Assembly (NCBI GenBank): GCA_963749455.1
Contig: CAVVMX010000006.1
Span: 125,769-157,768, forward strand
Length of the DNA stretch: 32,000 nt
Origin: an uncultured Chloroflexia bacterium
GTDB lineage: Bacteria > Chloroflexota > Anaerolineae > JAAYZQ01
Direction of reading: 5' to 3'
In this document: positions 12,430-27,092 of the stretch, in pieces
Position numbering within the stretch: the first letter of the stretch is position 1
Layout of the letters: each line of letters begins with the position of its first letter
Notes under the pieces: model-generated
What the model was told of the DNA's origin: nothing
The model's input: only the letters and a program-made list of their open reading frames with translations
The model's database searches: none
Made by a program: the position numbers and the translations under genes

Positions 12430-12469
12430 AGGTCCAAGTCCGGACTTGTTGCTTCCGCAGAGGACAGAA

Positions 12470-13681
12470 ATGCGTGCATCGAGCCAGGCACCGAAACCCA
12501 GCAAAATCCTGCTACGCGCCCATGAGCTCGCGCCGGCGCTGGTCGACATCCGCCGCACGCTGCACCGCCACCCTGAGCTCGGCTTCGAAGAGCGCTGCAC
12601 CGCGGCCCTCGTCGCCTCCAAGTTGCACTCGCTGGGCATCCGTGTCGAGACGAACGTCGGTATAACGGGCGTGGTGGGTCACATCGGCACGGGGGGCCCT
12701 ATTGTCGCCCTGCGGGCCGACATGGACGCTCTCCCTATCCAAGAGCTGAACCAAACGCCGTATGCCTCTGAGGTGCCTGGGATCATGCACGCCTGTGGTC
12801 ACGACGCCCACACGGCCTGTTTGCTGGGGGCCGCCACCATCCTCCAGGAGATCAAGCTCGACGGACAGGTGCGCCTGATTTTCCAGCCCTCAGAAGAAGG
12901 CATGGACAAAGAGGGCAAGAGCGGGGCCATGCGCATGGTCGAGGAGGGGGTCGCGGACGGCGTGCAGGCCTTTTTCGCCCTGCACGTGGACAGCGACTAC
13001 CACTCCGGCACGCTGGCGTGCTCACCGGGCTATGTGCTGGCTGCCATGGACACCCTTGTCATACAGGTCATGGGTACGGCGGCACACGGTGCCCAGGCCT
13101 ATCTGGGGGTAGATGCAGTGCTGCTGGCATCCCAGGTAATCGGCGCGCTGCACACAGTGGTCTCGCGGCGCATTTCGCCCCTGGACAGCGGCGTCATATC
13201 GATCGGCCTGATCCACGGCGGGACAAAGGAGAACATTCTGGCCGAACAGGTAGAGCTGCGCGGCACGGTTCGCAGCTTCAAGCCCGAGGTGCGCCAGGCG
13301 CTGCTCCGCGAAATCGACCGCGTGTGTGGGATAACCCGTGCTGTGGGGGGCGACTATCGCCTCTCCATCTGGCACGGGTACCCCGCACTGCACAACGATC
13401 CGAGCCTGACGGCGTTTGCCGTGGAGGCTCTGACCGGCCTGATCGGAAGCGAGGCGCTACTTCCCCTGGAACCCGAGATGGGCTCCGAGGATTTCAGTTT
13501 CTTTGCGCAGCGGGCGCCGGCATGCTACATGTCGCTCGGCGTCCGGTCCCCAGGACAGCCCATGCGCCCGGCGCACCATCCCGGCTTTGACATTGACGAA
13601 TCGGCCCTGCCGCTGGGAGCCGCCAGCCTGGCCCACCTTGCCGTCGGCTACCTGAATGCTCGGCCGCACGAGGGACAGTAG
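12470..13681 (+). CDS. M20 family amidohydrolase/peptidase (IAA-amino acid hydrolase/hippuricase-like)
   Basis: IRRTLHRHPELGFEE, VALRADMDALPIQE, PGIMHACGHDAHTACLLGAATIL, LIFQPSEEG, EPEMGSEDFSFFAQRAP. Confidence 0.95.
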   Translation: MRASSQAPKPSKILLRAHELAPALVDIRRTLHRHPELGFEERCTAALVASKLHSLGIRVETNVGITGVVGHIGTGGPIVALRADMDALPIQELNQTPYASEVPGIMHACGHDAHTACLLGAATILQEIKLDGQVRLIFQPSEEGMDKEGKSGAMRMVEEGVADGVQAFFALHVDSDYHSGTLACSPGYVLAAMDTLVIQVMGTAAHGAQAYLGVDAVLLASQVIGALHTVVSRRISPLDSGVISIGLIHGGTKENILAEQVELRGTVRSFKPEVRQALLREIDRVCGITRAVGGDYRLSIWHGYPALHNDPSLTAFAVEALTGLIGSEALLPLEPEMGSEDFSFFAQRAPACYMSLGVRSPGQPMRPAHHPGFDIDESALPLGAASLAHLAVGYLNARPHEGQ

Positions 13682-13689
13682 AGGAAACC

Positions 13690-14103
13690 ATGGCCTTTGA
13701 GGAACGGTTCCGGCTTCTGATCGCGAGTGGGCAGGCCAGCGAGCGGACCGTCGCAGCTGCCCGCGCTGCCCTTGGGGAGGTGGAGGCGCACTACCAGATC
13801 CTTCTCTGCGAACAAGTGGGTGCCTCGCTGGCCACGCACATCGCGGTCACCATGAAGCGCCTGTTGGACGGGGAAGCGTTGACCCAGGCCCCCGACACCG
13901 TCTGGAGCGAGCTCACGGCCTGGCCCGAGGAGGTGGCGCTGGCTACCTCCGTCGTGCACGGGCTGTGCAGAAGGCTGCGCCACTCCATCGCGCGGGACGA
14001 GGTCGGGTTTATCGCCCTGCATCTGTGCCGGATCCGGGCTGCAACCCTGCTGGCAGCCGAGGAGCCCGGCACAGCGGGGACTGCCGGTGAGGTGAGTGCA
14101 TGA
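13690..14103 (+). CDS. yhfY: Small PRD-domain protein (YhfY-like)
   Basis: THIAVTMKRLLDGEAL and DEVGFIALHLCRIR match the PRD pattern with regulatory histidines; position between yhfZ and yhfU. Confidence 0.75.
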   Translation: MAFEERFRLLIASGQASERTVAAARAALGEVEAHYQILLCEQVGASLATHIAVTMKRLLDGEALTQAPDTVWSELTAWPEEVALATSVVHGLCRRLRHSIARDEVGFIALHLCRIRAATLLAAEEPGTAGTAGEVSA

Positions 14104-14474
14104 TACGCATCAACGTCGGGGGACTGGCAGCCAAAGAGATCGCTGCCCTGGCTGCTCAGGTCGGAGGAGGCCAGGTCGAGGTGCAGGTAGGGACCGACAT
14201 TGTCGGGGCGCAGCAGGTCGCCATGGGAATGGCCGACTACTATTTCGGCGCCTGCGCCACCGGCCGGGGAGGTGCTCTGGCGATGGCCATGGCCCTCCTG
14301 GGCGTTTCGAAATGCTTCACTGCCAGCACGACCGGCCGGCCGCCCAAGGAGCAAGAGGTCCGGGAAGCCGTCGCTGCCGGCAAGAAGGCGTTCGGTTTCA
14401 CCACCGATCACGTGGATGTGGCTGTGCCTATGATCGTCAAGGCCATCCTGGCCGGGCGCCGCCACGAGGCCTAG
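14100..14474 (+). CDS. yhfU: DUF2620 family, YhfU-like glycine-rich small protein
   Basis: MIRINVGGLAAKEIAALAAQVGGGQVEVQVGTDIVGAQQVAMGMADYYFGACATGRGGALAMAMALLG; 4-nt ATGA overlap with upstream gene; synteny. Confidence 0.8.
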   Translation: MIRINVGGLAAKEIAALAAQVGGGQVEVQVGTDIVGAQQVAMGMADYYFGACATGRGGALAMAMALLGVSKCFTASTTGRPPKEQEVREAVAAGKKAFGFTTDHVDVAVPMIVKAILAGRRHEA

Positions 14475-14519
14475 CGCGCTGCGCCGGCGTCTGCGGGCCG
14501 AGTTCGAGGGGACCAAGCA

Positions 14520-15803
14520 ATGTCATCGACAACCATCGTGCTGATGGCTGTTGCGGGTGCCATAGGGGCCGCCCTGGCCAATCGGGGCGTTGCCGTGTTC
14601 CACGACGGACTCCGCGCCCTCGTACCAGAGCTGCTCGAGGGTCGCCTGCAGCGTAAGGAGTTTGGCGCCCTCGCCTCTAGCATGAGCTTTGGGTTGCTCG
14701 TCGGCTATGGCCTGCCGTTCTCGGTCGTGTCGGGGGTGGTCCTCTATCACAGCCTTTGGCTCGGAACAGATATCATCGGCGCACGGTTTCCCGGCCCGAC
14801 TGGATCTGGCCGGCAAGATCACAGCAGGGAGCTTCTAGGTCTGATCGGCGCCGCGCTCGCCGGTTGTCTCTACGGGGCCCTGCTGGCGGCAGGGCTGGCG
14901 GGCGTGCGCTGGCTCTTCTCGCACCTCCCCATCCCGATCCAGGGTTCCCTTCAGGAGATGGGGGCGCCGATCGTCCTGGCCTTTGCCATGTTCCCTGCCG
15001 TTGCTGTGGCCTGCCAGCACGGCGCCAGACACGGGGTGCTTGTGTTCCTTCTTACGCTGTTGGCACGGCATATCGCGAGCAGCCTGGGATTGGCCGGGCC
15101 CGACGCCTGGGCACTGGGCGTGGGCATGGCTACGTTGGTGATCTATGCCCTTCTGGCTCAGAAGCGCAGCCGGCCGGCCCAGGGCATGGTGCCGATTCCG
15201 ACCCAGGGCGCGGCTCGAATCCGCCGCCATCTGCCCTCGATCGTGCTGCTGGGTGCGGTCTATGGCCTAATCTGCAGCCAGGCGGTCATGATGGAGAGCC
15301 CACAGTCACTGCTTGCCCTCGGCCAGGGGGATCGGGCGACCGCGATCGGCGTCACAATCGCGCGTGGGTTGTGCTTTACCCCTCAAAAGACGATGTCGGC
15401 TGCGGCTACTGGCGTGTTCGCCCTCGACGGCTTTGGCTTTGTGGCGGCGGCAGGATTGCTCGCCCCAAATGCGTGGAGCGCGGCTCTGGCCGGAGCGATC
15501 GTCATGGGCCTCGAGGCGCTGAGCTTGGTCGCACTGTCTCGGCTGCTGTGCCGCTGGCCGGTTCTGTCCCAGACGGCCGACGCCATGCGCACCGCCATGA
15601 CTAAACTGCTCGAGATCGCCTCGATGGTGGGCGGTATGCTTGCGGCGAACAGCCTGAAGCCTGGCCTGGGGTTTGCAGCGGTGGCCGGCCTGTATGCGCT
15701 CAACGAGGTGTCCGGCTTGCCCATCACGCGTGCTGCCGCCGGCCCGGTGGCCATCCTCCTGTTTGGCCTGGGGCTTAACCTGTTCGCATGGATCACGGGA
15801 TAG
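14520..15803 (+). CDS. yhfT: YhfT-like multi-pass membrane protein (putative transporter)
   Basis: ALANRGVAVFHDGLRALVPELLEG and about 10 or more hydrophobic segments; syntenic between yhfU and yhfS. Confidence 0.85.
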   Translation: MSSTTIVLMAVAGAIGAALANRGVAVFHDGLRALVPELLEGRLQRKEFGALASSMSFGLLVGYGLPFSVVSGVVLYHSLWLGTDIIGARFPGPTGSGRQDHSRELLGLIGAALAGCLYGALLAAGLAGVRWLFSHLPIPIQGSLQEMGAPIVLAFAMFPAVAVACQHGARHGVLVFLLTLLARHIASSLGLAGPDAWALGVGMATLVIYALLAQKRSRPAQGMVPIPTQGAARIRRHLPSIVLLGAVYGLICSQAVMMESPQSLLALGQGDRATAIGVTIARGLCFTPQKTMSAAATGVFALDGFGFVAAAGLLAPNAWSAALAGAIVMGLEALSLVALSRLLCRWPVLSQTADAMRTAMTKLLEIASMVGGMLAANSLKPGLGFAAVAGLYALNEVSGLPITRAAAGPVAILLFGLGLNLFAWITG

Positions 15804-15805
15804 CG

Positions 15806-16900
15806 ATGCAGACCTACCCTTTAGAGCAATTGGATCTGGACGGCGCGATGGAGCTGCAATTCCGCTTGGTGGAGGCCATCGCGCGCCACTTTGACGGGCA
15901 TGCGATCCTCGAGGCCGGGGATTACGGACTGTGGGCAGACACGGGGCGGCCCCACCATACCGCGCGGGTCGAGGCTACGCTCGCCGACCTGTTCGGCGCC
16001 GAGGCCGCCTGCCTGGTTCGTGGGGCAGGCACGGGGGCAGTTCGCTCCACCATCATGGCTGCCGTGAAGCCGGGGCAGGAGCTGCTGCTGCATCAGGCGC
16101 CTCTCTACCCCACGACCCACGTGACTCTCGAAGCCATGGGCCTGCGGCCGGTGTTCGTCGATCTGAACGACCCGAGCGCGCTCGGAGAGTTCCCGCCCAC
16201 CGTGTCGTGCGCGCTGCTGCAACACACTCGCCAGCGGATGGACGACCGATACCAGTTGGCCGAAGTGATCCGGGCGCTGAAGGCGAGCCGCCCGAATCTG
16301 ATGGTGATCGTGGACGATAACTATGCGGCCATGCGCGTGCCCAAGATCGGGATCGAATTGGGTGCTGACGTCTCCACCTTCTCGCTGTTCAAGCTACTCG
16401 GCCCCGAAGGGGTGGGGTGCGTGCTGGCGGGTCACGATCTGGCTGCCAAGATCCACAGGCAGAACTACTCGGGAGGCACCCAAGTCCAGGGGGTCGAAGC
16501 TCTGGAAGCGCTGCGGGCCCTGACCTACGCGCCGGTGGCCTGGGCCGTTCAGAGCCAAGTTGTCGAGGAAGTGACGCGCCGCCTGAACTCTGGCGAGGTG
16601 GTGGGCGTGGAGCAGGCCTACGTGGCCAACGCCCAGTCACGGGTCATCCTGGTCAAGCTCGACAAACCGCTTGCCAAAGGGGTGGTGGCCGCCAGTGTTC
16701 AGTTTGGAGCTGCCGACCGTCCGGTCGGGGCGGAATCGCGTTACGAGGTCGCTCCGCTCTTCTACCGCATCTCGGGCACGTTCCGTGCAGAGAATCCCGA
16801 CCTGGCGGAACGGATGATCCGGATCAATCCGATGCGAGCCGGAGCCAATCTCGTCATCAGGATCCTCGACAAAGCCTTGGAGGCGTGTCAGGGAGGATGA
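15806..16900 (+). CDS. yhfS: YhfS-like PLP-dependent aminotransferase-fold enzyme
   Basis: FGAEAACLVRGAGTGAVRSTIMAAVKPGQELLLHQAPLYPTTHVTLEAMGL; VDDNYAAMRVPKIGIELGADVSTFSLFKLLGPEGVG; RVSGTFR-like region ISGTFRAENPDLAERMIRINP. Confidence 0.9.
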   Translation: MQTYPLEQLDLDGAMELQFRLVEAIARHFDGHAILEAGDYGLWADTGRPHHTARVEATLADLFGAEAACLVRGAGTGAVRSTIMAAVKPGQELLLHQAPLYPTTHVTLEAMGLRPVFVDLNDPSALGEFPPTVSCALLQHTRQRMDDRYQLAEVIRALKASRPNLMVIVDDNYAAMRVPKIGIELGADVSTFSLFKLLGPEGVGCVLAGHDLAAKIHRQNYSGGTQVQGVEALEALRALTYAPVAWAVQSQVVEEVTRRLNSGEVVGVEQAYVANAQSRVILVKLDKPLAKGVVAASVQFGAADRPVGAESRYEVAPLFYRISGTFRAENPDLAERMIRINPMRAGANLVIRILDKALEACQGG

Positions 16901-16901
16901 G

Positions 16902-18083
16902 ATGTTCCTAGACGTTACACTCCAACGAAATCCCAGGCTGATCGAAACCGCGCTGGCATTTCACCGCGCGGGGATCATCCCTCCCAATTGCTTCGTCATC
17001 GACTCGGACATTGTGGCAGAGAACGCCGCACTGCTCCACCAGGCCGCACATCGGGCCGGGCTGGACCTGTACTTCACTACCAAGCAGATCGGGTTCAACC
17101 CTCTGCTCGCCCGGCGCATCGTCGAGGCGGGCATCTCCAGAGCCATTGCCATCGATGCCCGGGAGGTCTCGGTCCTGGCGCGCAACCAGATCCCCATCGG
17201 TCATGTCGGTCACCTGGTGCAGATTCCCTATCACCTGATCGGCCCGGTGCTGAGACTGGAGCCGGAAGTTGTCACGGTCTTTAGCGTAGACAAGGCGAAG
17301 CAGATCTCCCAGGTGGCCGTGCAGGAGCAGCGTCAGGTCCGGCTCTTGCTCCGCGTCGTTGCTGACGGCGATTTCGTCTATCCCGGCCAGGCAGGCGGGC
17401 TGCAACTGGACACCCTGGTGTCACAGGCCATGCTCATTCAAGAGCTGCCCAACCTCCGGATCGTCGGCGTCACCTCCTACCCTTGTCTTCAGCTCGACGC
17501 AGCAACCCAGACTCTGATACCCACTCAGAACCTGTCCACCATCCTTCAGGCGGCGCGTGCTCTGCAAGAAGAGTTGGGCATTGTCGTCGAGCAGATCAAC
17601 GCGCCGGGAAACACGTGCGTTGGCGTCATGGACCTTTTGGCTCAGGCGGGCGCCACCCACGGTGAGCCCGGCCATGCCCTGACCGGGACTACATACCTGC
17701 ATACGCGCACCGATCAGGCAGAAAGACCGGCCATGGTCTATGTGAGCGAGGTCTCGCACCTCCACGGGAACCAGGCCCATCTCTTCGGCGGCGGAACATA
17801 TCGCCGGGCGGGGGTTCACAACGCCCTGGTCGGATCTGGCGCTGACAGTCTGGCGCGCACCGAGATTCTGCCGCTCGATCCCACCGCCATAGATTATTAC
17901 GTCGCGTTGGCGCTGCCTTCTGATCATACCGTGCAGGTGGGAGACACTGTGATCCTTGCTTCGCGGGCACAGGTCTTTGTCAGCCGCAGCTACGTGGCGG
18001 TCGCCCAGGGGATTCAGGCCGGGCATCCTACCCTGGCAGGTCTGTTTGATTCCTGGGGCGGGGCTGTGGAGAGGGTCGTCTAG
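16902..18083 (+). CDS. yhfX: YhfX-like alanine-racemase-fold PLP enzyme
   Basis: FVIDSDIVAENAALLHQAAHRAGLDLYFTTKQIGFNPLLARRIVEAG; GATHGEPGHALTGTTYLH. Confidence 0.9.
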   Translation: MFLDVTLQRNPRLIETALAFHRAGIIPPNCFVIDSDIVAENAALLHQAAHRAGLDLYFTTKQIGFNPLLARRIVEAGISRAIAIDAREVSVLARNQIPIGHVGHLVQIPYHLIGPVLRLEPEVVTVFSVDKAKQISQVAVQEQRQVRLLLRVVADGDFVYPGQAGGLQLDTLVSQAMLIQELPNLRIVGVTSYPCLQLDAATQTLIPTQNLSTILQAARALQEELGIVVEQINAPGNTCVGVMDLLAQAGATHGEPGHALTGTTYLHTRTDQAERPAMVYVSEVSHLHGNQAHLFGGGTYRRAGVHNALVGSGADSLARTEILPLDPTAIDYYVALALPSDHTVQVGDTVILASRAQVFVSRSYVAVAQGIQAGHPTLAGLFDSWGGAVERVV

Positions 18084-19294
18084 TGTCCCCTCGAGTGATC
18101 CTGCTGGTTATCGACGCGTTGGGCATTGGCGAGATGCCCGACGTCGCGCGGAACAGGCCCCAGGATGCCGGTGCCCATACGCTGGGCAGTGTCCTGCAAG
18201 ATGTGGGCCGCCTGGATCTTCCTGCCATGGCCGAGCTAGGCCTGGGCTGCGTCGATCCCTTGCCCGGCCTCGACCTCCCTGCGTCGGAGCCGCTCGCCAG
18301 CTACGGCCGATGCCGGCTTGCCCACACAGGTGCCGACAGTTACCTGGGACACCAGGAGATCATGGGTGCGATCCCCAAGCCCCCTGTGCTGACCCTCATG
18401 GCGCAGGCAGCCGGCCTGCTGGAGCAGCAGCTCGCTGCACACGGTCATATAGTCAAAAGGCCGCTGGATGGAAAGGGCCTGTTACTGGTCGATGAAGCGC
18501 TCGTGATCGGCGACAACCTGGAGGCCGATCCTGGACTGAATATCAACCTGACCGTCGCCACCGACGAGATCGACTTTGGCCGGGCCCTCGCGATCGGCAA
18601 GATCGTCCGGGAGCTGGTGAGCGTCGCCCGTGTGATCGTCTTTGGAGGGCCCGGCATTACGACCGGCAGCATCCTGGACCACGTGGAGCAGCGAGACAAT
18701 GGACAGCTCGGCGTCAACAGCCCTGCTCTGGGGGTCTACGATGAGCATCTGTTTGTCCAGCACCTGGGCTATGGGGTCGATCCCGAGCGGCAGGCAGCAT
18801 CTATCCTATGCCGGGCTGGCATCCCGGTGGTTCTGCTCGGCAAAATGGCCGATCTGGTCGTCTGCCCCTGCGCCCGCCAGGATTCGGTGGTCCCCACGCC
18901 GCAGCTGATGCGCACGTTGCGCGATTGCTACCGGAGTGCGCTTGGAGGCCTGATCGCAGCCACGGTGCAGGAAACCGACCTGGCCGCTCACGAAGGCGAC
19001 TGTGCGCGATTTGCCCACGTGCTTGGCGACGTAGACCGTGGCTTGCAGGCGCTGCTGCCGGACATGGCCGCAGGCGATCTTCTGATCCTCTGCGCTGACC
19101 ATGGCAACGATCCGCGTGTGAACGTCGGGCTCCACACCAGGGAAGAGACGCCCCTGCTGATCTACCAGAAAGATAGGGCCGCTGTGCCCTTGGGAGTTCG
19201 CAGCACGCTCGCGGATATTGGCGCGACTATCACCCATATGTTCAGTGCACCGCCGACACAGGATGGTGTCACCCTATTGGATCGGAGGAATTGA
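18083..19294 (+). CDS. yhfW: YhfW-like phosphopentomutase/metalloenzyme-superfamily protein
   Basis: GTG start overlapping upstream TAG; VILLVIDALGIGEMPDV ... ADSYLGHQEIMG ... LLILCADHGNDP ... HTREETPLLIY, alkaline-phosphatase superfamily metal sites. Confidence 0.9.
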   Translation: MSPRVILLVIDALGIGEMPDVARNRPQDAGAHTLGSVLQDVGRLDLPAMAELGLGCVDPLPGLDLPASEPLASYGRCRLAHTGADSYLGHQEIMGAIPKPPVLTLMAQAAGLLEQQLAAHGHIVKRPLDGKGLLLVDEALVIGDNLEADPGLNINLTVATDEIDFGRALAIGKIVRELVSVARVIVFGGPGITTGSILDHVEQRDNGQLGVNSPALGVYDEHLFVQHLGYGVDPERQAASILCRAGIPVVLLGKMADLVVCPCARQDSVVPTPQLMRTLRDCYRSALGGLIAATVQETDLAAHEGDCARFAHVLGDVDRGLQALLPDMAAGDLLILCADHGNDPRVNVGLHTREETPLLIYQKDRAAVPLGVRSTLADIGATITHMFSAPPTQDGVTLLDRRN

Positions 19295-20700
19295 TGCAAC
19301 TGGAGCTTCTCACGCCGGAGGATGTGGCGAGTGTTCATGCCGCCTCTATCCGCCTACTCGCCGAGATGGGGGTTCGATTCGGCAGCCGAAAGGCGCTGGA
19401 GATCCTGGCTGCTGCGGGCGCCCGCGTCGACCTGGACCGGAAAATGGTCTGGATGCCGGAGACGCTCGTCGAGGACGCCTTGCGTACCACCTCCGGCCAT
19501 TTCCGGCTGTGGAGCCGGGATGGCAGCCAGGTAGTGGACCTGCAGGATGGCCAGATCCGGGGCCATAACGTCGGCGGGTGCGTGCGGATCTTTGATTTCC
19601 TCAAGGGCGAGGCGCGAGACGCAACGCAGGGCGACCTAGTGCAGCTGACTGTTCTCCTGGATGCCCTCGAGAATATCCACGTCTGCCGGCCCATGGTCTA
19701 TCCCCGCGACTTTCCCACCATGCTGCGCGACATCTTTATTCTCGGCACCATGCTCCGGCACACCACCAAGCCGTACGGAGTCACCGCCTACAGCCCGGAG
19801 AACCTCGTCTATATTCTCGAGCTGGCCGGCGTCATCGCCGGCAACCTGGAGAATCTGAGGAGCAGGCCGTTCCTCTGGGGCAGCGTCTGCCCAGACAGCC
19901 CTCTCTCTTACTCTGAGAGCACCTCGAACATCCTGATGCGATACGCCGAGCTTGGGTTGCCGGTTGCCATTGCGCCCTGCCCAATCTGCGGGGGAACAAG
20001 CCCCGTCACCCTGGCCGGAACGCTGGCCCAGCTGAATGCCGAGTTCCTGGCCGGCCTGGTCCTGGTGCAGGTCATCCAGCCTGGAATCGACGCCAAGTAC
20101 ACCGGCCGGCCCATACCCATGGACATGAGGACCGGCAATGCCACATTTGGCGCCGTTGAGGCGGGCATGATGTCCGCCGGAATTGTCCAGTTGGCCAGGC
20201 GCTACCGAGTCTGTTCTGACGTGTACGGCCTGGGTACTCGCTCCAGAGCGCTGGACGAACAGTCGGCGTACGAGAAAGCGATAAACGGCCTGCTGGTGGC
20301 GCTGGCCGGGGCCGATCTGGTAGCGGCTGCGGGGCTGCTTGAGGATGCGCTTACTTCTAGCGCAGAGCAGCTGGTGATCGACAATGACATCCTGGGTATG
20401 ATTTTCCGCGCTGTGCGCGGAATTGGGGTCACGCCCGAAAGCCTGGCCGTCGAAACGATCATGAAGGCGGGCATCGGCGGCAGTTTTCTGACCGAGCCGC
20501 ACACCCTGGCCCATATGCGAAAAGAGCTGTACCTGCCCAAGCTTGCCTCACGCCCAGCTTCCCAGGCGCTCCTGGAGGCAGCTGCTGACAGGGTCCAGAC
20601 CATTCTGGCGTCCCACCAACCCAAGCCGCTCGAGGCGGCGATGGTCGCCGAGATCGAGCGCATCCTGGACCGGGCGACCCGAACGCTGAGGGCACAGTGA
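19294..20700 (+). CDS. MttB/trimethylamine-methyltransferase family protein (non-pyrrolysine type, by absence of in-frame amber)
   Basis: VHAASIRLLAEMGVRFGS; RGHNVGG-like GHNVGGCVRIFD; YGVTAYSPENL; PIAIAP-like VAIAPCPICGGTSPVTLAGTLAQLNAEFLAGLVLVQ; SDVYGLGTRSRALDEQSAYEKAINGLLVALAGADLV. ATG overlaps yhfW stop. Confidence 0.9.
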   Translation: MQLELLTPEDVASVHAASIRLLAEMGVRFGSRKALEILAAAGARVDLDRKMVWMPETLVEDALRTTSGHFRLWSRDGSQVVDLQDGQIRGHNVGGCVRIFDFLKGEARDATQGDLVQLTVLLDALENIHVCRPMVYPRDFPTMLRDIFILGTMLRHTTKPYGVTAYSPENLVYILELAGVIAGNLENLRSRPFLWGSVCPDSPLSYSESTSNILMRYAELGLPVAIAPCPICGGTSPVTLAGTLAQLNAEFLAGLVLVQVIQPGIDAKYTGRPIPMDMRTGNATFGAVEAGMMSAGIVQLARRYRVCSDVYGLGTRSRALDEQSAYEKAINGLLVALAGADLVAAAGLLEDALTSSAEQLVIDNDILGMIFRAVRGIGVTPESLAVETIMKAGIGGSFLTEPHTLAHMRKELYLPKLASRPASQALLEAAADRVQTILASHQPKPLEAAMVAEIERILDRATRTLRAQ

Positions 20701-21023
20701 GCGACTTGGACAACAGCGACATCTGTGGACCTCGATGGTCACCCGTGACGGCGACCGAGATCACCGTCACCCTCTCCAGCAGGGCGAGCCTGCACGCCCG
20801 TCCGGCAGCGCTGCTGGTACAAGTGGCGAATGGATTTGCCTGTGATGTGCGCGTGTTCAAGGCCGGTGGTGGCTCGGCGAGTGGCAAGAGCATCCTGGGG
20901 ATCCTGAGTCTGGACGTAGGCCCCAGAGACACGATCACCGTTCGAACGGAAGGAGACGATGCTCAGCAGGCGCTCGCTCGCATCCGGGCGCTTGTGGAGA
21001 GCGATTTCGTAGAAGTGGAGTGA
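20697..21023 (+). CDS. ptsH: HPr-family phosphocarrier
   Basis: SRASLHARPAALLVQVA (phosphorylatable His in LHARPAA) and SASGKSILGILSLDVGPRDTI; GTG start overlaps upstream TGA. Confidence 0.9.
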   Translation: MSDLDNSDICGPRWSPVTATEITVTLSSRASLHARPAALLVQVANGFACDVRVFKAGGGSASGKSILGILSLDVGPRDTITVRTEGDDAQQALARIRALVESDFVEVE

Positions 21024-21182
21024 GGAAGGTTCCGGAAAGGGAAACGATCTGTCGAAATGGAGGTGAAAGGCGGCATATTCCAATGCGGGGCCCGCATGAC
21101 CTTGGCCAGGTCAGGTCGGCAGAATTCGGAAGCCCGCAGAAGCTTCCACTCTTGGTAACCAAACAATAAAGGAGAGAGGATC

Positions 21183-22868
21183 ATGAAACGCTTGAACCTA
21201 GTCGTATGCGTGTTGATGGTCGCCACCTTGGCCCTTAGCGCCTGCGGGGCGACGCCTACACCTCAGGTCATCAAGGAGACGGTGCAGGTCAAGGAGACGG
21301 TGCAGGTCAAGGAGACCGTCGAGGTCAAAGAGACCGTGCAGGTCAAAGAGACGGTGCAGGTCAAGGAGACCGTCGAGGTGGTCGTGACCGCCACCCCCGA
21401 GCCGACGCCTGCCCCGAAGAAGGGGGGGGTGCTGATCGCCGCGTATGCAACCGACGCCAAAGGCGTGGACCCGCACACGGCCACCAACTTCTCTGCCTTC
21501 CGCATCCTGGAGCTGACGTACGACTCACTGCTGGCATTCGACAAAGATCTGGCTGTGATTCCGAACCTTGCCGAGTCGTGGAGCTGGTCGGATGATGGGC
21601 TCGCGCTCACCCTGAAACTGCGCCAGGACGTCAAGTTCCATAGCGGCAACCCGCTCACATCAGCGGATGTCAAGTTCTCATTCGAGCGGATCCTGGACGA
21701 AGCTACCGGGGCCGCCGCGCGCTCCTACTTTACCAATATCACCAGCATCGATACGCCCGATGACTATACCGTCGTTCTGCACCTTGCTGAGCCGCAGGTC
21801 TCCCTTCTGGCGGCTATGACGAACGCAAACTCGGCGATCGTGGACTCCAAGGCGGTTCAGGCCGGCGCGGACCCGACCAAGACCGAAGTCGGCTCGGGTC
21901 CATTCAAGCTGGAGAGCTGGGAGCCTGACGTCAAGCTGGTCCTTACTGCCAACGAGGACTACTGGATGCCCGGCCTGCCATACCTGGACGGCATCGAATT
22001 CCGGACGATTCCAGACGAGAGCTCTATCCTGGCTGCGCTGCGCACCAAGCAGATCGATTGGGGCATCATCGCCGACCCGCGGGTGGCTATTGCCGCCGGA
22101 GCGGCCGGCAGCACGCTGGTGATCGACCGGGCGCCCGCGCTGTCGTACCACGTGATGCAGCTCAACGACAAAAAGCCGATCTTCCAGGATGTGCGCGTGC
22201 GGCAGGCCCTGTCATGCGCCATCGACCGGCAGCAGGTTCTGGACACCGCCTCGCTCGGCGAAGGCCAGGTAATCGGTCCGGTGACACCCCCCTACTATCG
22301 CCCCACCGACGCGGAGAGCCTCTACTGCTACACCCAGGATCTGGAGAAGGCCAAGCAGCTGCTGGCGGAGGCCGGCGTGACCACCCTCAAGTTCGCGATG
22401 ATGGCCACCACCGAGGAAATGCCCGTGACCGTCGCCGAGGCGCAGAACATCCAGGCGCAGCTCACCCAGCTGGGTATCGAGACGACCATCGACACAGTCG
22501 AGCTGGGTGTCTTTGTGGACCGCTGGTTCGCGACGGACTTTGACGCCGTGCTCACCGAGAACGGCGGCAACCCCGATCCCGACGTGATGCTCTATCGCTA
22601 TTGGCACAGCACCGGTAACCTGAACTCCATCGCGACCTATAACGCGCCCGAGATCGACGAGCTGCTGACCCAGGGCCGCACCACGGCCGATCCCGAGCAG
22701 CGCAAGGCCATCTACGCCGACGTCTCTCAGAAGCTGACCGAGGCGGCGCCCTGGATCTGGCTGTACGTGGGATACCAGTACCGCGTGATGCAGCCCTACG
22801 TCACGGGCTATACTTCGCTGGCGAATGGCTCTGCCATGTACTTGCGCGAGACGTGGCTCAACAAGTAG
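21183..22868 (+). CDS. Peptide/nickel-type ABC transporter substrate-binding lipoprotein (SBP family 5)
   Basis: Lipobox LALSACG; LAESWSWSDDGLALTLKLRQDVKFHSGNPLTSADVKFSFERI; VRQALSCAIDRQQVL; RBS ggagag upstream. Confidence 0.95.
   Translation: MKRLNLVVCVLMVATLALSACGATPTPQVIKETVQVKETVQVKETVEVKETVQVKETVQVKETVEVVVTATPEPTPAPKKGGVLIAAYATDAKGVDPHTATNFSAFRILELTYDSLLAFDKDLAVIPNLAESWSWSDDGLALTLKLRQDVKFHSGNPLTSADVKFSFERILDEATGAAARSYFTNITSIDTPDDYTVVLHLAEPQVSLLAAMTNANSAIVDSKAVQAGADPTKTEVGSGPFKLESWEPDVKLVLTANEDYWMPGLPYLDGIEFRTIPDESSILAALRTKQIDWGIIADPRVAIAAGAAGSTLVIDRAPALSYHVMQLNDKKPIFQDVRVRQALSCAIDRQQVLDTASLGEGQVIGPVTPPYYRPTDAESLYCYTQDLEKAKQLLAEAGVTTLKFAMMATTEEMPVTVAEAQNIQAQLTQLGIETTIDTVELGVFVDRWFATDFDAVLTENGGNPDPDVMLYRYWHSTGNLNSIATYNAPEIDELLTQGRTTADPEQRKAIYADVSQKLTEAAPWIWLYVGYQYRVMQPYVTGYTSLANGSAMYLRETWLNK
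21273..21380 (+). repeat. Six tandem 18-nt units encoding KETV(Q/E)V in the lipoprotein linker
   Basis: aaggagacggtgcaggtc-type unit repeated six times with synonymous changes. Confidence 0.9.
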
Positions 22869-22880
22869 GATAGAAACTAC

Positions 22881-22924
22881 GGGAAGTGGTCGGCGGTCAA
22901 AATGCCAGCCGCCGTCCACTTCCC
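22881..22924 (+). promoter_or_regulatory. Intercistronic mRNA hairpin between SBP and permease genes
   Basis: GGGAAGTGG-tc-GGCGG ... CCGCC-gt-CCACTTCCC, no U-tract. Confidence 0.75.
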
Positions 22925-22945
22925 AACGCGCAGAGTGAGACGGTC

Positions 22946-23899
22946 ATGCAGAGTTTCCTGTCCCGGCGGCTGATCGCATTCATACCCACCCTGTTGGGCA
23001 TCACGATCATCATCTTTATCGTGATGCACCTCATCCCGGGTGATACCATCGATGCCATGATCGGCACCGAGTTCAAGCTGACCGAAGTGCAGGCGCAGGC
23101 CCTCCGCGAATACTTTGGGCTGGATAAACCGCTGCCCGAGCAGTATGCGCGCTGGCTCCTGGCCGCCGCGCGCGGCGATTTTGGTTACTCTGTCCGCAAG
23201 GGAGAGCCTGTGCTGCCGCTGATCCTGCGCCACTTTCCTCTCACCCTCGAATTGGCGGTTCTGGGCATGGCAGTCGCCCTATTGCTGGGCATCCCGCTGG
23301 GTGTGCTGTCGGCCGTCAAACGCGATTCGCTGATCGACCTGATCGGACGCCTCTTTGCGCTGATCGGGCTGGCCGTGCCCGCATTCTGGCTGGGCACGCT
23401 GATCATCCTCGTCCTATCGCTGCGTTTCAATATCATGCTCAATGCCGGAAACTATGTCGACCTGTTCGAGGACCCCGTGGGGAATCTAAAACAGATGCTC
23501 TTTCCTGCTCTCGCCCTGGGCTTTGCGGCAAGCGCAGATGTGATGCGCACCATGCGCTCGGCCATGTTGGAGGAGCTGGGGCAAGACTATGCTCGAACGG
23601 CGCGCAGCAAGGGGTTGAGTGAGCGGGCGGTGATCTACAGACATTGCCTCAAGAATGCATTGATCCCCGTCATCACCATTGTTGGCCTTGAAACCGGCTA
23701 CCTTTTCGGCGGCGCCGTCATCGTCGAATCGGTCTTTGCCCTGCCGGGCGTCGGACGGCTCCTTCTGGATGCCATCGGCCAGCGAGACTATGCCGTGGTT
23801 CAGGGGACCATCTTGCTGATCGCCTTCAGTTTTGTCTTGGTGAACCTGTTGACCGATCTGGCCTATGCTTGGGTCAACCCGCGGATTCGCTATGATTGA
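22946..23899 (+). CDS. Peptide/nickel-type ABC transporter permease (DppB-like)
   Basis: MQSFLSRRLIAFIPTLLGITIIIFIVMHLIPGD; QDYARTARSKGLSERAVIYRHCLKNALIPVITIVGLETGYLFGGAVIVE. Confidence 0.95.
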   Translation: MQSFLSRRLIAFIPTLLGITIIIFIVMHLIPGDTIDAMIGTEFKLTEVQAQALREYFGLDKPLPEQYARWLLAAARGDFGYSVRKGEPVLPLILRHFPLTLELAVLGMAVALLLGIPLGVLSAVKRDSLIDLIGRLFALIGLAVPAFWLGTLIILVLSLRFNIMLNAGNYVDLFEDPVGNLKQMLFPALALGFAASADVMRTMRSAMLEELGQDYARTARSKGLSERAVIYRHCLKNALIPVITIVGLETGYLFGGAVIVESVFALPGVGRLLLDAIGQRDYAVVQGTILLIAFSFVLVNLLTDLAYAWVNPRIRYD

Positions 23900-24782
23900 G
23901 AGCGGCAGCGCGCGTCTTCGTGTTCCTCAATCGGGAGCTCTCCACTCGCGGCGTGCCCGCGGCGTTCTGCGGCTGTTCCGCAGCGGCAGCACCGTGATCG
24001 GATTGATCCTGGTCACCATCTATGTCGTCGTGGCGCTCTTTGCTTCGACGCTGGACGCCTACTCGCCGATCGAGCAGCATCCAAAGGACCGACTACAGCC
24101 ACCCTCCGCCAAGTACCTGCTGGGCACAGACGAGTTCGGGCGTGATATCCTAAGCCGGCTGATGCACGGCGCTACCAACTCCTTGCGTGTTGCCGTCCTG
24201 TCGGTGGCGATTGCGTGCCTGGTGGGAGCCAGCCTCGGCATATTGGCAGGCTACGCCGGAGGGCTGGTGGACAACGTCATCATGCGCGTGATGGACCTTT
24301 TCTTCGCCTTCCCTGCCATGCTGCTGGCGCTTTCAATTGTGACTGCCCTGGGACCGGGGATGAAGAACACCATCCTGGCCATTGCACTCGTCTACATGCC
24401 GATTTTCGCGCGTGTGGCACGCGGCCCCGTCCTTGCCGTCAAGACCATGGAGTTTGTGGATGCGGCGCGGTCAATCGGCGCGCAGCACTTACGCATCGTG
24501 GGGCGTCACATCCTGCCAAACATCACCGCCCCAATCCTCGTTCAGGTCAGCCTTGCACTGTCCTGGGCCATGCTCACCGAGGCCGGCCTCAGTTTCCTGG
24601 GGCTGGGGACCATCCCTCCAACGCCGTCGTGGGGAAGCATGTTGGCTGACAGCCGCAGACTGATGGAGCTCGCCCCCTGGACCGCCGTCTTTCCCGGTCT
24701 GGCGATCATGGTCGGCGTGTTGGGCTTTAACTTGTTGGGCGATGGCCTGCGCGACGTGCTCGACCCGCATCTACGGAACTAG
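23892..24782 (+). CDS. Peptide/nickel-type ABC transporter permease (DppC-like)
   Basis: HPKDRLQPPSAKYLLGTDEFGRDILSRLMHGATNSLRVAV; FVDAARSIGAQHLRIVGRHILPNITAPILVQ. Start overlaps the upstream stop. Confidence 0.95.
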   Translation: MIESGSARLRVPQSGALHSRRARGVLRLFRSGSTVIGLILVTIYVVVALFASTLDAYSPIEQHPKDRLQPPSAKYLLGTDEFGRDILSRLMHGATNSLRVAVLSVAIACLVGASLGILAGYAGGLVDNVIMRVMDLFFAFPAMLLALSIVTALGPGMKNTILAIALVYMPIFARVARGPVLAVKTMEFVDAARSIGAQHLRIVGRHILPNITAPILVQVSLALSWAMLTEAGLSFLGLGTIPPTPSWGSMLADSRRLMELAPWTAVFPGLAIMVGVLGFNLLGDGLRDVLDPHLRN

Positions 24783-24853
24783 CCCAGGCAACCCAATGGC
24801 GCAGCTCTCTTGCAGTTCTCGGAGATCGGTCGCCGGTGCAGATGGAGGAAGGC

Positions 24854-26569
24854 ATGCGGTGGCTTGAAGGTATCTTTGCCTCGGAGGGCGTGGCGATAGG
24901 CGCTGTCTGGATCTATCGCCCCCGTGCTATCGTAGCCGTTGAGCGCACAGTAGCCGCCCCGGAAGCCGAGTCCGCGCGCCTGGGGGCCGCTCTGGCGCGC
25001 GCCAAGGAAGAGTTGGATGCGCTGTACCACAATACCGCCGAGGTAGTGGGCGTCAGGACCGCCGGCATCTTCCAGGCACAACGGTTGATTCTGGAGGATC
25101 CGGAGCTACTCCACGCTGTCGAAGCTCATCTCCGCGCGGGAGCGAATGCGGAAACCGCGCTCGCCACAGAGGTCGAGCGGTTTGCTTCCATGCTGGCCGG
25201 CCTACAAGAACCCACCCTTCGGCAGCGTGCCGCCGACGTGCGGGATGTGGGCCAGCGCGTGCTGCACGTGTTGGCAGGAGCGGAGAGGATCTTGTCGGCT
25301 GCCCCTGGCGCGCCTGCCATCGTCGTCGCCCAAGATCTGAACCCCTCTGAGGTGGCGCAGTTGAACAGGTCTGAGACGCTTGGCATAGCCCTCGCGCGGG
25401 GCGGAAGCACTTCTCACGCGGCTATCCTGGCACGCGGCCTGGGGTTTCCGACCGTCGTCGGCCTCGGCGACCGGCTGCTCGACGCGGTTCAGAACGGCAT
25501 GTTCGTCATCCTTGACGGGCACGCAGGGCTTCTGATCGTGAGTCCGGAAGAAGCCCTGTTGCAGGACTATGGGACACGGCGGGCGCTCTGGCGTTCCGCG
25601 TGCGAAGCGGCGCGTGCCACTGCCCTGGACCCGGCGATCACACTGGACGGCCGCCGGGTAGAGGTTGTAGCCAACCTGGGCGATGGCACGTCGGCACAAG
25701 CCGCGCTGGCCTTCGGCGCGGAAGGGGTGGGCGTGCTGCGCACCGAGTTTCTCTTCCTCCAGCGCGGGGCGATGCCCGACGAGGAGGAGCAGTACATCGC
25801 CTACCGCGCCCTCGCCACGGCGATGGGCTCGCGGCCGCTGATTATCCGGACCCTGGACATTGGGGGTGACAAGGACATTCCCTATCTGGACTTGGGCCAG
25901 GAGCGCAATCCGTTCCTGGGCTACCGCGCGATCCGCATCTCGCTCACCCATCCCGAAATGCTCAAGACGCAGTTGCGAGCGATCCTCCGCGCGGCAGAGG
26001 GCTGCAATGTCAAAGTGATGTTTCCCATGATCGCGACACTCGACGAACTGCGCGCTGCGCGGCGTCTCCTGGAAGAAGCGCGGACGGAGCTGTGCGCGCG
26101 TCTCGGGGCATCTGTTCCCGGCATCGAGGTGGGGATCATGGTCGAAGTACCTTCGGCTGCCGTCTGCGCACCTGTCTTGGCGCGCGAAGTAGACTTTGTC
26201 AGCCTGGGTACGAACGATCTAATCCAGTATACGCTGGCCGCAGACCGCACGAATGAGCGTGTGCGGACCCTCTACGATCCCCTCCAACCGGCTGTCCTCC
26301 ACCTGGTCAAGAAGGTGATCGACGATGCGCATGCCGCCGGCATCTGGGCCGGCGTGTGCGGCGAGATGGCCGCCGACCTCGATGCTGTGCCGCTCCTGCT
26401 TGGCATGGGCCTGGATGAGTTCAGCATGAACGCGGCCACGATCCCCGAGGTCAAGGCCCTGATCCGTTCCCTCCGCTCTGATGCGATGCAAGACCTGGTT
26501 GCGCGCGCTCTGAAATTGCCCACCGCAGTGGAGATCCGTGCGCTGGTCCGCGGGCGGTCTGCGGTCTGA
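24854..26569 (+). CDS. ptsI: PTS Enzyme I (phosphoenolpyruvate-protein phosphotransferase)
   Basis: Active-site ALARGGSTSHAAILARGLGFPTVVGLG; GVGVLRTEFLFL; RTLDIGGDKDIPYL; NPFLGYRAIR; FVSLGTNDLIQYTLAADR; GVCGEMAAD. Start revised to ATG 24854 (gaggaagg RBS). Confidence 0.95.
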   Translation: MRWLEGIFASEGVAIGAVWIYRPRAIVAVERTVAAPEAESARLGAALARAKEELDALYHNTAEVVGVRTAGIFQAQRLILEDPELLHAVEAHLRAGANAETALATEVERFASMLAGLQEPTLRQRAADVRDVGQRVLHVLAGAERILSAAPGAPAIVVAQDLNPSEVAQLNRSETLGIALARGGSTSHAAILARGLGFPTVVGLGDRLLDAVQNGMFVILDGHAGLLIVSPEEALLQDYGTRRALWRSACEAARATALDPAITLDGRRVEVVANLGDGTSAQAALAFGAEGVGVLRTEFLFLQRGAMPDEEEQYIAYRALATAMGSRPLIIRTLDIGGDKDIPYLDLGQERNPFLGYRAIRISLTHPEMLKTQLRAILRAAEGCNVKVMFPMIATLDELRAARRLLEEARTELCARLGASVPGIEVGIMVEVPSAAVCAPVLAREVDFVSLGTNDLIQYTLAADRTNERVRTLYDPLQPAVLHLVKKVIDDAHAAGIWAGVCGEMAADLDAVPLLLGMGLDEFSMNAATIPEVKALIRSLRSDAMQDLVARALKLPTAVEIRALVRGRSAV

Positions 26570-27056: not shown

Positions 27057-27092
27057 CAGTACAATACTCTGAGAAGGCAGGTTTGTCAAGTT

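Follow-up and report, generated by a model that had tools for sequence, protein, structure and literature searches.

Several functions of the PTS depend on Enzyme I (EI) and HPr and proceed without a canonical EII permease, including regulation by PTS-Ntr and phosphorylation of a cytoplasmic substrate by DhaKLM, in which the acceptors, EIIA-Ntr and DhaM, are of the EIIA type. PRD-containing regulators of the BglG/LicT type work together with EII sensors (BglF, BglP), and in LicT, the cognate EII acts on His100 of PRD1 and HPr acts on PRD2 (PMC12591593). The yhf genes of E. coli K-12 (yhfZ-yhfY-yhfX-yhfW-php-yhfU-yhfT-yhfS, b3376-b3383) rely on the general ptsHI genes, which are located elsewhere. 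The window that we analyzed, a 32,000-nt stretch of DNA from an uncultured Chloroflexia bacterium, contains the Chloroflexota version of this conserved, uncharacterized catabolic operon, together with its own EI and HPr (Table 1). YhfZ, Y, U, T, S, X and W all match specific Pfam or NCBIfam models as well as the E. coli proteins, such that orthologues of seven yhf proteins are common to both operons, and the U-T, X-W and Z-Y pairs are kept. Compared with the E. coli operon, the window lacks php (PTE-family) and has in addition an M20 amidohydrolase gene, an MttB-like gene, Opp-type ABC genes, HPr and EI. Acquisition of its own EI and HPr would make the yhf module self-sufficient for PEP-dependent phosphotransfer, and the combination of these genes with no normal sugar-specific permease makes it possible to test the idea of orphan PTS partners.

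The 14 genes form a single plus-strand array at ~11.4-26.6 kb of the window, in the order yhfZ, M20 amidohydrolase, yhfY, yhfU, yhfT, yhfS, yhfX, yhfW, MttB-like, HPr, binding protein, two permeases and EI, with -16 to +159 bp between genes. The initial annotation of this DNA gave the span as 13690-26569; every element that it named is present there, but the start is too late, as the unit begins upstream with yhfZ and the M20 gene. The promoter-like site ahead of yhfZ is the best of seven sigma-70-like sites in 11000-27200, matching at 11 of 12 positions (a consensus match only). Translation of yhfZ probably starts at the ATG at 11491 or 11542 rather than at the TTG at 11413, based on the lengths of the gene calls in two relatives (312 aa in L085 and 295 aa in L084), and the yhfS start was set by a 364-aa gene call in L084. 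The MttB-like protein scores 415 bits against TIGR02369, under the cut-off of 525, and no corrinoid protein gene adjoins it.

Table 1. Features of the yhf operon in the window, with the basis for each assignment.
Feature	Position	Strand	Basis
Promoter-like site (TTGACA, 17 nt, TAGAAT, with TG)	11413..11441	+	upstream of yhfZ; consensus match only
yhfZ, GntR-type HTH regulator with YhfZ_C domain	11491..12429	+	NF041241 YhfZ_full 7.6e-105; HTH_41, YhfZ_C
M20 amidohydrolase, CpsA/hippuricase-like	12446..13681	+	Peptidase_M20 1.9e-41; TIGR01891 1e-108
yhfY, stand-alone PRD protein, 137 aa	13690..14103	+	PF00874, single domain
yhfU, DUF2620, RpiB-like alpha/beta fold (predicted)	14100..14474	+	PF10941 8.6e-38; AF2 model pLDDT 95
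yhfT, polytopic membrane protein	14520..15803	+	PF10797 4.5e-100; AF2 model pLDDT 85, all-helical
yhfS, fold-type I PLP enzyme	15806..16900	+	YhfS-like_C 1.4e-42, Cys_Met_Meta_PP
yhfX, alanine-racemase-fold PLP protein	16902..18083	+	YhfX-like_C, Ala_racemase_N
yhfW, phosphopentomutase-like metalloenzyme (phosphomutase)	18083..19294	+	NF009049 4.3e-135; Metalloenzyme family
MttB-superfamily methyltransferase-like gene	19291..20700	+	PF06253 2.9e-84
HPr	20697..21023	+	PF00381 1.3e-24; TIGR01003
Family-5 (Opp/Dpp-type) solute-binding lipoprotein	21183..22868	+	SBP_bac_5 5.7e-96
ABC permease, DppB/OppB-like	22886..23899	+	BPD_transp_1, BPD_transp_1_N
ABC permease, DppC/OppC-like	23865..24782	+	BPD_transp_1, OppC_N
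PTS Enzyme I (His194, Cys508)	24836..26569	+	three EI Pfam domains; 44% identity to E. coli PtsI

HPr and EI flank the ABC genes, as had been noticed at the outset, and both keep their catalytic residues. EI contains the HPr-binding N-terminal, swivelling His and PEP-binding domains (PEP-utilisers_N 8e-25, PEP-utilizers 9e-21 and PEP-utilizers_C 1e-114) and aligns end to end with E. coli PtsI, with the His of its GGSTSH motif and its Cys corresponding to E. coli H189 and C502. HPr scores 86 bits against PF00381 (cut-off 23) and 68.8 against TIGR01003 (cut-off 47.9), and its His33 and Ser65 align with His15 and Ser46 of E. coli HPr. The order HPr-SBP5-permease-permease-EI following yhf genes recurs in a locus whose YhfT is 52% identical (L090), and HPr comes after the MttB-like gene in an 82% relative as well (L088). 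EI and HPr are also found inside yhf clusters of one genome each from Oscillospiraceae (L006), Anaerolineaceae (L023) and Treponema (L074), representing three phyla, and the EIs of these clusters are 35-45% identical to one another. The intact proteins, their position in a tight array, the recurring order and the repeated recruitment all count in favor of the reading that we tentatively prefer, in which a dedicated EI/HPr relay supplies two modules, the regulators YhfY and YhfZ and a non-canonical unit of YhfU and YhfT; one locus that keeps the ABC importer and the yhf genes with no EI or HPr in the 15 kb read (L091) counts against it.

Alternatively, EI and HPr could be general PTS genes, the only ones that the organism has, working for canonical EIIs encoded elsewhere and placed beside the yhf genes by coincidence, with YhfY responding to those distant EIIs. 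Consistent with this possibility, neither EI nor HPr is encoded within the yhf cluster in E. coli and in most of the 81 loci, and a fruB-type HPr fusion lies near the yhf cluster of Photorhabdus, apparently by chance. We consider coincidence unlikely, however, as the HPr-ABC-EI arrangement is kept with yhf genes at ~50% protein identity, the clusters of the three phyla acquired EI and HPr in differing gene orders, and the flanks vary among relatives while the block from yhfZ to EI holds together.

The only recognizable acceptor domain in the operon, unlike in PTS-Ntr and DhaKLM, is a PRD. YhfY, correctly described in the initial annotation as a single-PRD protein upstream of the transporter genes, scores 29.3 bits against PF00874 (cut-off 23) and aligns to PRD1, not PRD2, of LicT, GlcT and BglG, with both histidines aligned to those of LicT and GlcT. 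The first of these, His50, is equivalent to the EII-phosphorylated His100 of LicT and is invariant in the family (74 of 74); the second, His111, occurs in this protein as well, but just 27 of the 74 keep it and most relatives have Asn. A PRD protein is found in 72/81 YhfT loci and co-occurs with YhfU in every evaluable locus (the four YhfU-only loci are contigs cut right at YhfU), and a DUF2620-PRD fusion protein exists (P0205). These associations, the PRD1-like character of YhfY and the invariance of His50 link the yhf module to phosphotransfer by the PTS. YhfY itself does not fit the BglG/LicT type of antiterminator: it has neither a CAT RNA-binding domain nor a second PRD, it matches only residues 65-161 of the GlcT model (41 bits versus a cut-off of 320), and no Rfam RNA family reached the gathering score in 10500-27500. 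DNA binding would reside instead in the separate GntR-type protein YhfZ, the gene for which adjoins yhfY in 31 of 37 loci.

The main rival to our preferred reading, offered as the alternative in the initial annotation and still live, is that the relay serves regulation only. EI would then pass phosphate to HPr and on to His50 of YhfY, and YhfY would modulate YhfZ, tying expression to PEP/pyruvate or carbon state as in PTS-Ntr; YhfU would act after YhfW as a thiol enzyme, either an RpiB-like isomerase or one of another kind, YhfT would be a secondary carrier, and import would depend mainly on the ABC system. This is possible, although we give it less weight than a relay that also feeds YhfU and YhfT. 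The adjacency of yhfY and yhfZ, the presence of an ABC importer and the precedent of PTS chains with regulatory roles alone favor it, whereas the PRD1-like type of domain is normally charged by an EIIB, not by HPr. It also leaves the source of the phosphate on the YhfW substrate unexplained. A family scan of the cluster genes revealed a phosphomutase homologue but no kinase, and a phosphorylated intermediate therefore needs a source, which counts in favor of a phosphotransferase function within the module.

No recognizable EIIA, EIIB or EIIC had been seen in the window, and family scans bear this out: none matched among the 14 cluster genes or in the 15 ORFs scanned on the flanks, and YhfU, YhfT and YhfY did not match PTS EII families even at E<=10. 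EIIA families were absent from the window ORFs, including those in and beside the cluster, and from the gene tables of relatives. Among 150 otherwise unannotated neighbor ORFs from 27 diverse loci, only two match PTS_EIIC, and no EIIA or EIIB family is included in the 25 most frequent of the 178 families matched. Canonical EII genes are not linked to yhf clusters. The presence of EI and HPr with no normal permease suggests that two orphan yhf proteins, YhfU and YhfT, act as a phosphotransferase partner of an unrecognized kind. The lack of an EIIA weighs on the other side, since we know of no PTS in which phosphate passes from HPr to a Cys-type IIB with no EIIA in between.

The proposal that YhfU and YhfT form a divergent B-like/C-like pair survives in part. 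Their genes do form a paired unit, the most conserved adjacency in the cluster (41 of 46 dereplicated loci; yhfX and yhfW adjoin in 36 of 38), and in one locus (L020) two U-T pairs have co-diverged, being 36% and 33% identical. YhfU has an invariant Cys52-x-Thr54-Gly in a glycine-rich loop (Cys52 and Thr54 conserved in 78/78). YhfU resembles the EIIB proteins of the Lac/Chb, Gat and Asc types (PF02302) in its small size and alpha/beta structure, in having a seemingly essential Cys ahead of a glycine-rich loop, and in its gene context, next to the gene for a polytopic membrane protein and in one operon with a PRD gene, to which EI and HPr are added in this window. The resemblance to EIIB and EIIC at the family and fold level, however, did not hold up when compared by AF2 modeling, Foldseek and hhalign. 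As an EIIB of PF02302, YhfU was rejected: it has no PTS_IIB match at E<=10, and in the model Cys52 follows strand 3 (residues 47-52), not strand 1. Its structural similarity to Lac IIB is weak (3nbm, E 0.035, TM 0.39-0.45), and only 17 columns align with UlaB (E 0.11). YhfT was rejected as an EIIC of the Glc/Fru/Lac, Gut, Gat/Asc or Man types, as it resembles no solved EIIC in sequence or fold; searches of the PDB by sequence and by Foldseek yielded no solved relative, and a profile comparison with UlaA indicated no relationship. In Erysipelotrichaceae and Synergistaceae, moreover, YhfT is encoded in loci that lack YhfU or YhfY, where its neighbors are peptidases or a PTE-family gene, indicating that it can serve as an ordinary carrier, as the regulation-only alternative would have it.

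The fold that the YhfU model most closely resembles is that of RpiB/LacAB isomerases, not that of PTS IIB. RpiB provides the top Foldseek matches (E 1e-3, TM 0.58-0.67), and hhalign produced a colinear alignment of 109 columns with the same order of beta-alpha units, in which Cys52 and Thr54 correspond to Cys66 and Thr68, the catalytic Cys-x-Thr of RpiB/LacAB, with the Cys-x-Thr-Gly at the end of strand 3. The placement of its Cys and Thr, at positions that are catalytic in the isomerases, makes an enzymatic role for YhfU equally natural, and YhfU and the phosphopentomutase-like YhfW, a conserved partner, would form a coherent mutase-plus-isomerase pair, as expected if the relay only regulates. 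The family-level match is incomplete, however. Against the LacAB_rpiB model (PF02502), E. coli YhfU scores a sub-threshold 13.6 bits (cut-off 24.7), and YhfU from the window is unmatched. A four-residue gap lies opposite the 'CDHV' of RpiB (Asp9, His10), His99 is not kept, and YhfU, which is 25 residues shorter, ends ahead of the C-terminal helix (before RpiB residue 127 or later). Asp9/His10, His99 and the Arg/His residues of that helix are catalytic and phosphate-binding elements of the isomerase, and their absence argues against a plain RpiB-type isomerase. HMMER profile searches with YhfU did not reach RpiB either: among 1.84 billion proteins, 171 matched at E<=0.001, and the 150 matches listed include no series of proteins of RpiB length (~150 aa), and a profile search of PDB sequences did not find RpiB. 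YhfU also pairs, and in L020 is duplicated, with the membrane protein YhfT rather than with YhfW or YhfX, which counts against regulation alone.

Gene content, conserved residues, conserved gene pairs and the repeated recruitment of EI and HPr are observed; each phosphotransfer step after HPr, the substrate and the direction in which it is transported are inferred. In the scheme that we propose, a dedicated relay would run from PEP through EI (His194) and HPr (His33) to two yhf-specific acceptors. The first would be a split PRD regulator, YhfY (His50) working with the adjacent DNA-binding YhfZ. The second would be an uptake and phosphorylation unit composed of YhfT and YhfU, with Cys52 of the RpiB-like fold placed before the glycine-rich loop at a helix N-terminus. 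With EIIA absent, YhfU would be charged either by YhfY~P or by HPr~P directly. From YhfU~P, phosphate would pass to the substrate being transported, and YhfU would also exchange phosphate with YhfY, such that transport activity would set operon expression by draining phosphate from the regulator, as in BglF/BglG-type systems; the putative sensor would be an RpiB-fold protein plus YhfT, unlike the EIIBCA of BglF and BglP. The phosphorylated product would then enter steps catalyzed by YhfW and by the PLP enzymes YhfX and YhfS.

The precursor is probably a larger, peptide-like molecule, which the Opp-type importer would bring in and the M20 enzyme would trim. In Chloroflexota, yhf genes and ABC genes are kept together, and the presence of an importer there counts against uptake through YhfU and YhfT. 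A further explanation is that the ABC system or YhfT imports an unphosphorylated compound that YhfU~P, charged by EI and HPr (perhaps via YhfY), phosphorylates in the cytoplasm with no group translocation, similar to DhaKLM. The bracketing of the ABC genes by EI and HPr here and in L090, the phosphomutase without a kinase, the solubility and invariant Cys of YhfU and the precedent of DhaM all fit such a soluble kinase. We nevertheless regard it as rather improbable, given that the strong U-T adjacency points to a membrane partner, that the clusters of enterobacteria and Firmicutes lack an ABC system, and that an ADP- or substrate-binding kinase-like subunit was not found. A full importer of this type has a binding protein, two permeases and two ATPases, and no ATPase gene for it is present in the cluster; the ABC_tran genes that the window has outside the cluster are parts of ECF-type and PBP_like_2 systems, and the same binding protein and permeases occur without an ATPase gene in L090 and L023. 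The linker of the binding protein is encoded by an 18-bp tandem repeat, present in 5.6 copies at 21271-21370.

All real genes between ~11.4 and 26.6 kb lie on the + strand with spacings of -16 to +159 bp, and Pfam and NCBIfam assignments identify them as the array tabulated below. The initial annotation, which described an EI/HPr/PRD relay without a classical EII, was correct in gene content, and no PTS EII family match was obtained among the flanking ORFs scanned, but the unit opens two genes earlier than was proposed, at yhfZ. The best promoter-like site of the region (11413-11441) is directly 5' of yhfZ, terminator-like sites within the array are not in excess (9, versus 8.2 expected from shuffled sequence), and no RNA family reached its Rfam gathering score in the region; the G+C content of the window is 60-71%, and the names of its homologues assign it to Chloroflexota, near Anaerolineae-type MAGs. 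EI is 44% identical to E. coli PtsI and retains the catalytic His and Cys, and HPr retains the equivalents of His15 and Ser46.

Genes of the yhfZ-to-EI array, in window coordinates
Gene	Position	Strand	Assignment
yhfZ	~11491-12429	+	GntR-type HTH + YhfZ_C; NF041241, 7.6e-105
M20 amidohydrolase	12446-13681	+	Pfam/NCBIfam
yhfY	13690-14103	+	one PRD domain, 137 aa
yhfU	14100-14474	+	DUF2620
yhfT	14520-15803	+	PF10797 membrane protein
yhfS	15806-16900	+	PLP enzyme
yhfX	16902-18083	+	alanine-racemase-fold PLP protein
yhfW	18083-19294	+	phosphopentomutase-like
MttB-like	19291-20700	+	methyltransferase superfamily
HPr	20697-21023	+	PTS phosphocarrier
SBP	21183-22868	+	family-5 solute-binding protein
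two Opp/Dpp-type permeases	22886-24782	+	Pfam/NCBIfam
EI	24836-26569	+	PTS Enzyme I

The flanks contain ECF-type transporter modules, a PBP_like_2 ABC system, a phosphodiesterase/sulfatase-like gene, a TiaS-like gene encoding a TCKD-like domain protein just 3' of EI (27093-27779), and a thermolysin-type M4 peptidase fragment at the window end (31127-31999). Upstream, the reading frames of an ABC ATPase (8831-9298/9138-9563) and of a PBP_like_2 + Oxidored_molyb binding protein (9594-10328/10473-11279) are broken; the latter is intact, as one gene of 560 aa, on a second contig from this organism (L084, 774-2456), which suggests that the broken frames at 8831-11279 are assembly indel errors or pseudogenes. 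The ECF-type modules (ABC_cobalt, ABC_tran, CbiQ) stand on both sides of the operon (1277-5078 and 27800-31023), with frames also broken in the downstream one, and an ECF ATPase + CbiQ pair lies immediately 5' of the yhf cluster in an Oscillospiraceae locus (L006, 2-2279).

The array corresponds to the E. coli yhf operon with extra genes. In E. coli K-12 this operon spans b3376-b3383 (YhfS, YhfT, YhfU, Php, YhfW, YhfX, YhfY and YhfZ, all annotated as putative or uncharacterised), whereas ptsHI is encoded away from it. Neither the literature searched nor the family descriptions assign a function to this conserved E. coli operon, and no functional study of the cluster was found in that literature. 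Genes of the same names in B. subtilis are unrelated to the yhf cluster.

When one genome per species was scanned by pattern, 80 loci with YhfT relatives emerged, or 81 with the E. coli locus, spread across Chloroflexota, many Bacillota, Atopobiaceae, Fusobacteria, Treponema, Synergistaceae, Pasteurellaceae and Enterobacterales. By iterative searching of the ORFs at these 81 loci, YhfU was recovered from 76 and the PRD protein YhfY from 72. The two occur together in every evaluable locus (72/72), and each of the four loci with YhfU only is a contig that starts at YhfU. After dereplication to 51 loci, three gene pairs stood out: YhfU-YhfT (41/46), YhfX-YhfW (36/38) and YhfY-YhfZ (31/37). A Solobacterium locus contains two YhfU-YhfT pairs that are merely 36% and 33% identical, indicating that the pair was duplicated and diverged as a unit.

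We know of no partner for the PRD protein of the yhf operon. YhfY aligns with PRD1, not PRD2, of LicT, GlcT and BglG, and its His50, the equivalent of LicT His100, is kept in 74 of 74 family members; a second histidine, His111, is present in the window protein and replaced by Asn in 46 of the 74. In LicT, His100 of PRD1 is targeted by the cognate EII (BglP), while PRD2 receives its phosphate from HPr (PMC12591593). No RNA- or DNA-binding domain is present in YhfY, and its constant neighbor YhfZ supplies an HTH, such that the pair resembles a PRD-containing regulator split into two proteins.

EI and HPr do not normally belong to yhf clusters, yet they recur, in differing arrangements. The order is yhfZ-HPr-EI-yhfX in the Oscillospiraceae locus L006 and yhfW-HPr-EI in a Treponema locus (L074), while in an Anaerolineaceae locus (L023) EI and HPr are on the opposite strand and are followed by SBP5 and two permease genes and then the yhf genes. 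An 82% relative of the window (L088) has the MttB-like gene followed by HPr, and L090, whose YhfT is just 52% identical, has exactly the gene order of the window through EI; the yhfZ-to-EI block is kept together in the window, L088 and L090, and their flanks are unrelated. In L091 the ABC genes are kept with the yhf genes, and no EI or HPr was found within the 15 kb read. The EIs of the window, L006, L023 and L074 share 35-45% identity, a divergence that fits long residence or independent recruitment rather than recent transfer of one cassette. HPr matches in Photorhabdus were rejected as cluster members, since they are ORFs of ~380 aa that lie about 6 kb upstream and fit a fruB-type fusion. 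That general PTS genes merely happen to be placed beside yhf genes is, in our judgment, improbable, and less likely than either a permease-like or a purely regulatory role for the relay. Given a near-universal PRD protein, the invariance of its histidine and the repeated recruitment of EI and HPr, PEP-dependent phosphotransfer appears to be an integral part of the yhf module.

The yhf cluster shows no linkage to canonical EII genes. When 150 otherwise unannotated neighbor ORFs from 27 diverse loci were scanned, PTE (17/150) and Amidase (6/150) families recurred, PTS_EIIC matched two of the 150, and the 25 most frequent families shown included neither an EIIA nor an EIIB family. The candidate phosphate acceptors are His50 of YhfY and Cys52 of YhfU.

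YhfU belongs to a small family: a DUF2620 HMMER profile search retrieved 171 proteins at E<=0.001 among 1.84 billion, with no link to any other family and no sign of RpiB or PTS_IIB relatives. Its invariant residues in a 37-sequence alignment include G8, D33, Y48, G50, C52, T54, G55, G57, G58 and K95, and Cys52 and Thr54 are present in 78 of 78 sequences. The AlphaFold model (pLDDT 95) is a five-stranded beta-alpha fold in which Cys52 closes strand 3 and precedes a glycine-rich loop and then a helix. Sequence searches of the PDB, with a single sequence and with a profile, returned nothing meaningful for YhfU; in Foldseek searches of the PDB, RpiB structures (5ifz, 3qd5) matched the model at E 1e-3 to 4e-3 and TM 0.58-0.67, a lactose-type IIB (3nbm) at E 0.035 and TM 0.39-0.45, and CheY-like receivers at higher E values. 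Profile comparison with E. coli RpiB (hhalign) gave a colinear alignment of 109 columns (E 0.005 for a single comparison, at low probability) that places Cys52/Thr54 on RpiB Cys66/Thr68, removes RpiB 'CDHV' in a 4-residue gap and ends short of the last RpiB helix. This better result came from widening the DUF2620 side; the proteins listed in a homologue search with E. coli RpiB were all at least 80% identical, so the RpiB profile was no better. E. coli YhfU has a sub-threshold LacAB_rpiB Pfam match at the Cys52/Thr54 loop, and just 17 residues of YhfU align with UlaB. The other residues essential for RpiB catalysis and phosphate binding are missing from YhfU. From the fold, alignment and profile results, therefore, YhfU is an RpiB-fold protein outside the known IIB families, and the earlier suggestion of a divergent EIIB/EIIC pair is only partly supported.

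These fold data favor a relay whose role is purely regulatory, with YhfU working downstream of YhfW as an RpiB-like enzyme; the gene-pair data argue against it, and we regard it as possible but doubtful, though it is the main rival to the reading preferred below. One polypeptide, P0205 (267 aa), joins DUF2620, with its Cys, through a Pro/Ser/Ala-rich linker to a PRD with both histidines, and looks like the sole true fusion among the candidates. The PTE-DUF2620 (P0176) and DUF2620-YhfT (P0209) fusions resemble read-through or frameshift products of adjacent genes and were given no weight.

The reading we prefer, tentatively, is that YhfU and YhfT form a non-canonical IIB/IIC-like unit and that YhfY/YhfZ regulate in response to its phosphorylation state, which the regulator would sense. 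We prefer it because the PRD is of the EII-targeted type, canonical EIIs are not linked to the cluster, YhfU-YhfT is the tightest gene pair and was duplicated as a pair, a YhfU-PRD fusion is known, and the pathway includes a phosphomutase while a kinase is missing. A DhaM-like role, in which the relay serves a soluble kinase, is also improbable, less likely than either the IIB/IIC-like unit or regulation only. Since EIIA is absent, YhfU of the IIB/IIC-like unit would be charged by YhfY~P or HPr~P. In BglG/BglF, phosphate passes in both directions between the histidine of a PRD and the cysteine of an EIIB, making charging by YhfY~P chemically plausible. That YhfT, YhfU and YhfY constitute a new type of PTS permease we consider rather unlikely; in such a permease, YhfT would be a membrane carrier of new fold, YhfU a Cys phosphocarrier on the RpiB/LacAB isomerase fold and not on any known IIB fold, and the stand-alone PRD would replace EIIA between HPr and the Cys carrier as well as signal to YhfZ.

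Seven families of PTS permeases are recognized, and a new type, if true, would add one more and provide a mechanism for an orphan E. coli operon. The parts belong to known families or known orphan families, so the system does not open a new category. Its novelty lies in how the parts are combined, with a PTS relay placed inside an operon that offers no candidate acceptors other than a stand-alone PRD and a cysteine protein of RpiB fold, the latter paired with an unclassified membrane protein. Self-contained versions equipped with EI and HPr occur in phyla that have little exchange with enterobacteria. They argue that PEP-dependent phosphotransfer is part of the working of the module, and they narrow the acceptors to two small proteins, one with an invariant His and one with an invariant Cys, thereby reducing the annotation problem of the yhf operon to a four-protein in-vitro question. 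If YhfU is phosphorylated, it would be a PTS phosphocarrier built in a structurally new way and would connect sugar-phosphate isomerases with PTS components in evolution; otherwise, the module would be a clean case of a PTS relay kept solely to regulate one catabolic operon via a split PRD regulator.

For YhfT, PDB sequence searches (single sequence and profile) gave nothing meaningful, and neither hhalign comparison, with UlaA or of its N-half with its C-half, was significant. Three Erysipelotrichaceae loci (L015, L016, L018; about 5400-11250) carry YhfT without other yhf genes, behind beta-lactamase-family, M24 and M20 peptidase genes in L016, the one of the three scanned, and in a Synergistaceae locus (L070, 9938-12161) YhfT is followed by a PTE-family gene. 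YhfU and YhfY are in none of these four loci, indicating that YhfT can act without YhfU. Peptidases and amidohydrolases are the recurring company of YhfT, and the stretch of L023 that separates the ABC genes from yhfZ (5280-8183) encodes a GNAT acetyltransferase, a beta-lactamase-family hydrolase and anhydro-N-acetylmuramic acid kinase (AnmK). These neighbors hint at peptide-like or cell-wall-derived substrates, with a possible link of the AnmK set to cell-wall fragment recycling.

Several further features of the neighborhoods were observed. The Opp/Dpp-type importer consists of a binding protein and two permeases without ATPase genes (window 21183-24782; L090 16830-20417; L023 1708-5283), and EI occupies the usual place of the ATPase genes after the permeases in the window and L090. 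The binding-protein gene contains an 18-bp tandem repeat (21271-21379; 5.6 copies, 90% matches) coding for a KETVQV-type repeat linker placed after the lipoprotein signal. A short Amidase-family (PF01425) gene recurs within yhf clusters of several lineages (L074 1353-2534; L020 12554-13522), and the php-like PTE gene, commoner than Amidase in yhf neighborhoods, is absent from the window. The MttB-superfamily gene is a conserved member of Chloroflexota yhf clusters and hints at an N-methylated substrate. In two loci, an ORF immediately follows it (L001 13285-13920; L003 16276-16911), and these ORFs are taken to be the two B12-binding matches that the pooled neighbor scan left unnamed; in the window, HPr follows the MttB-superfamily gene in place of such an ORF.
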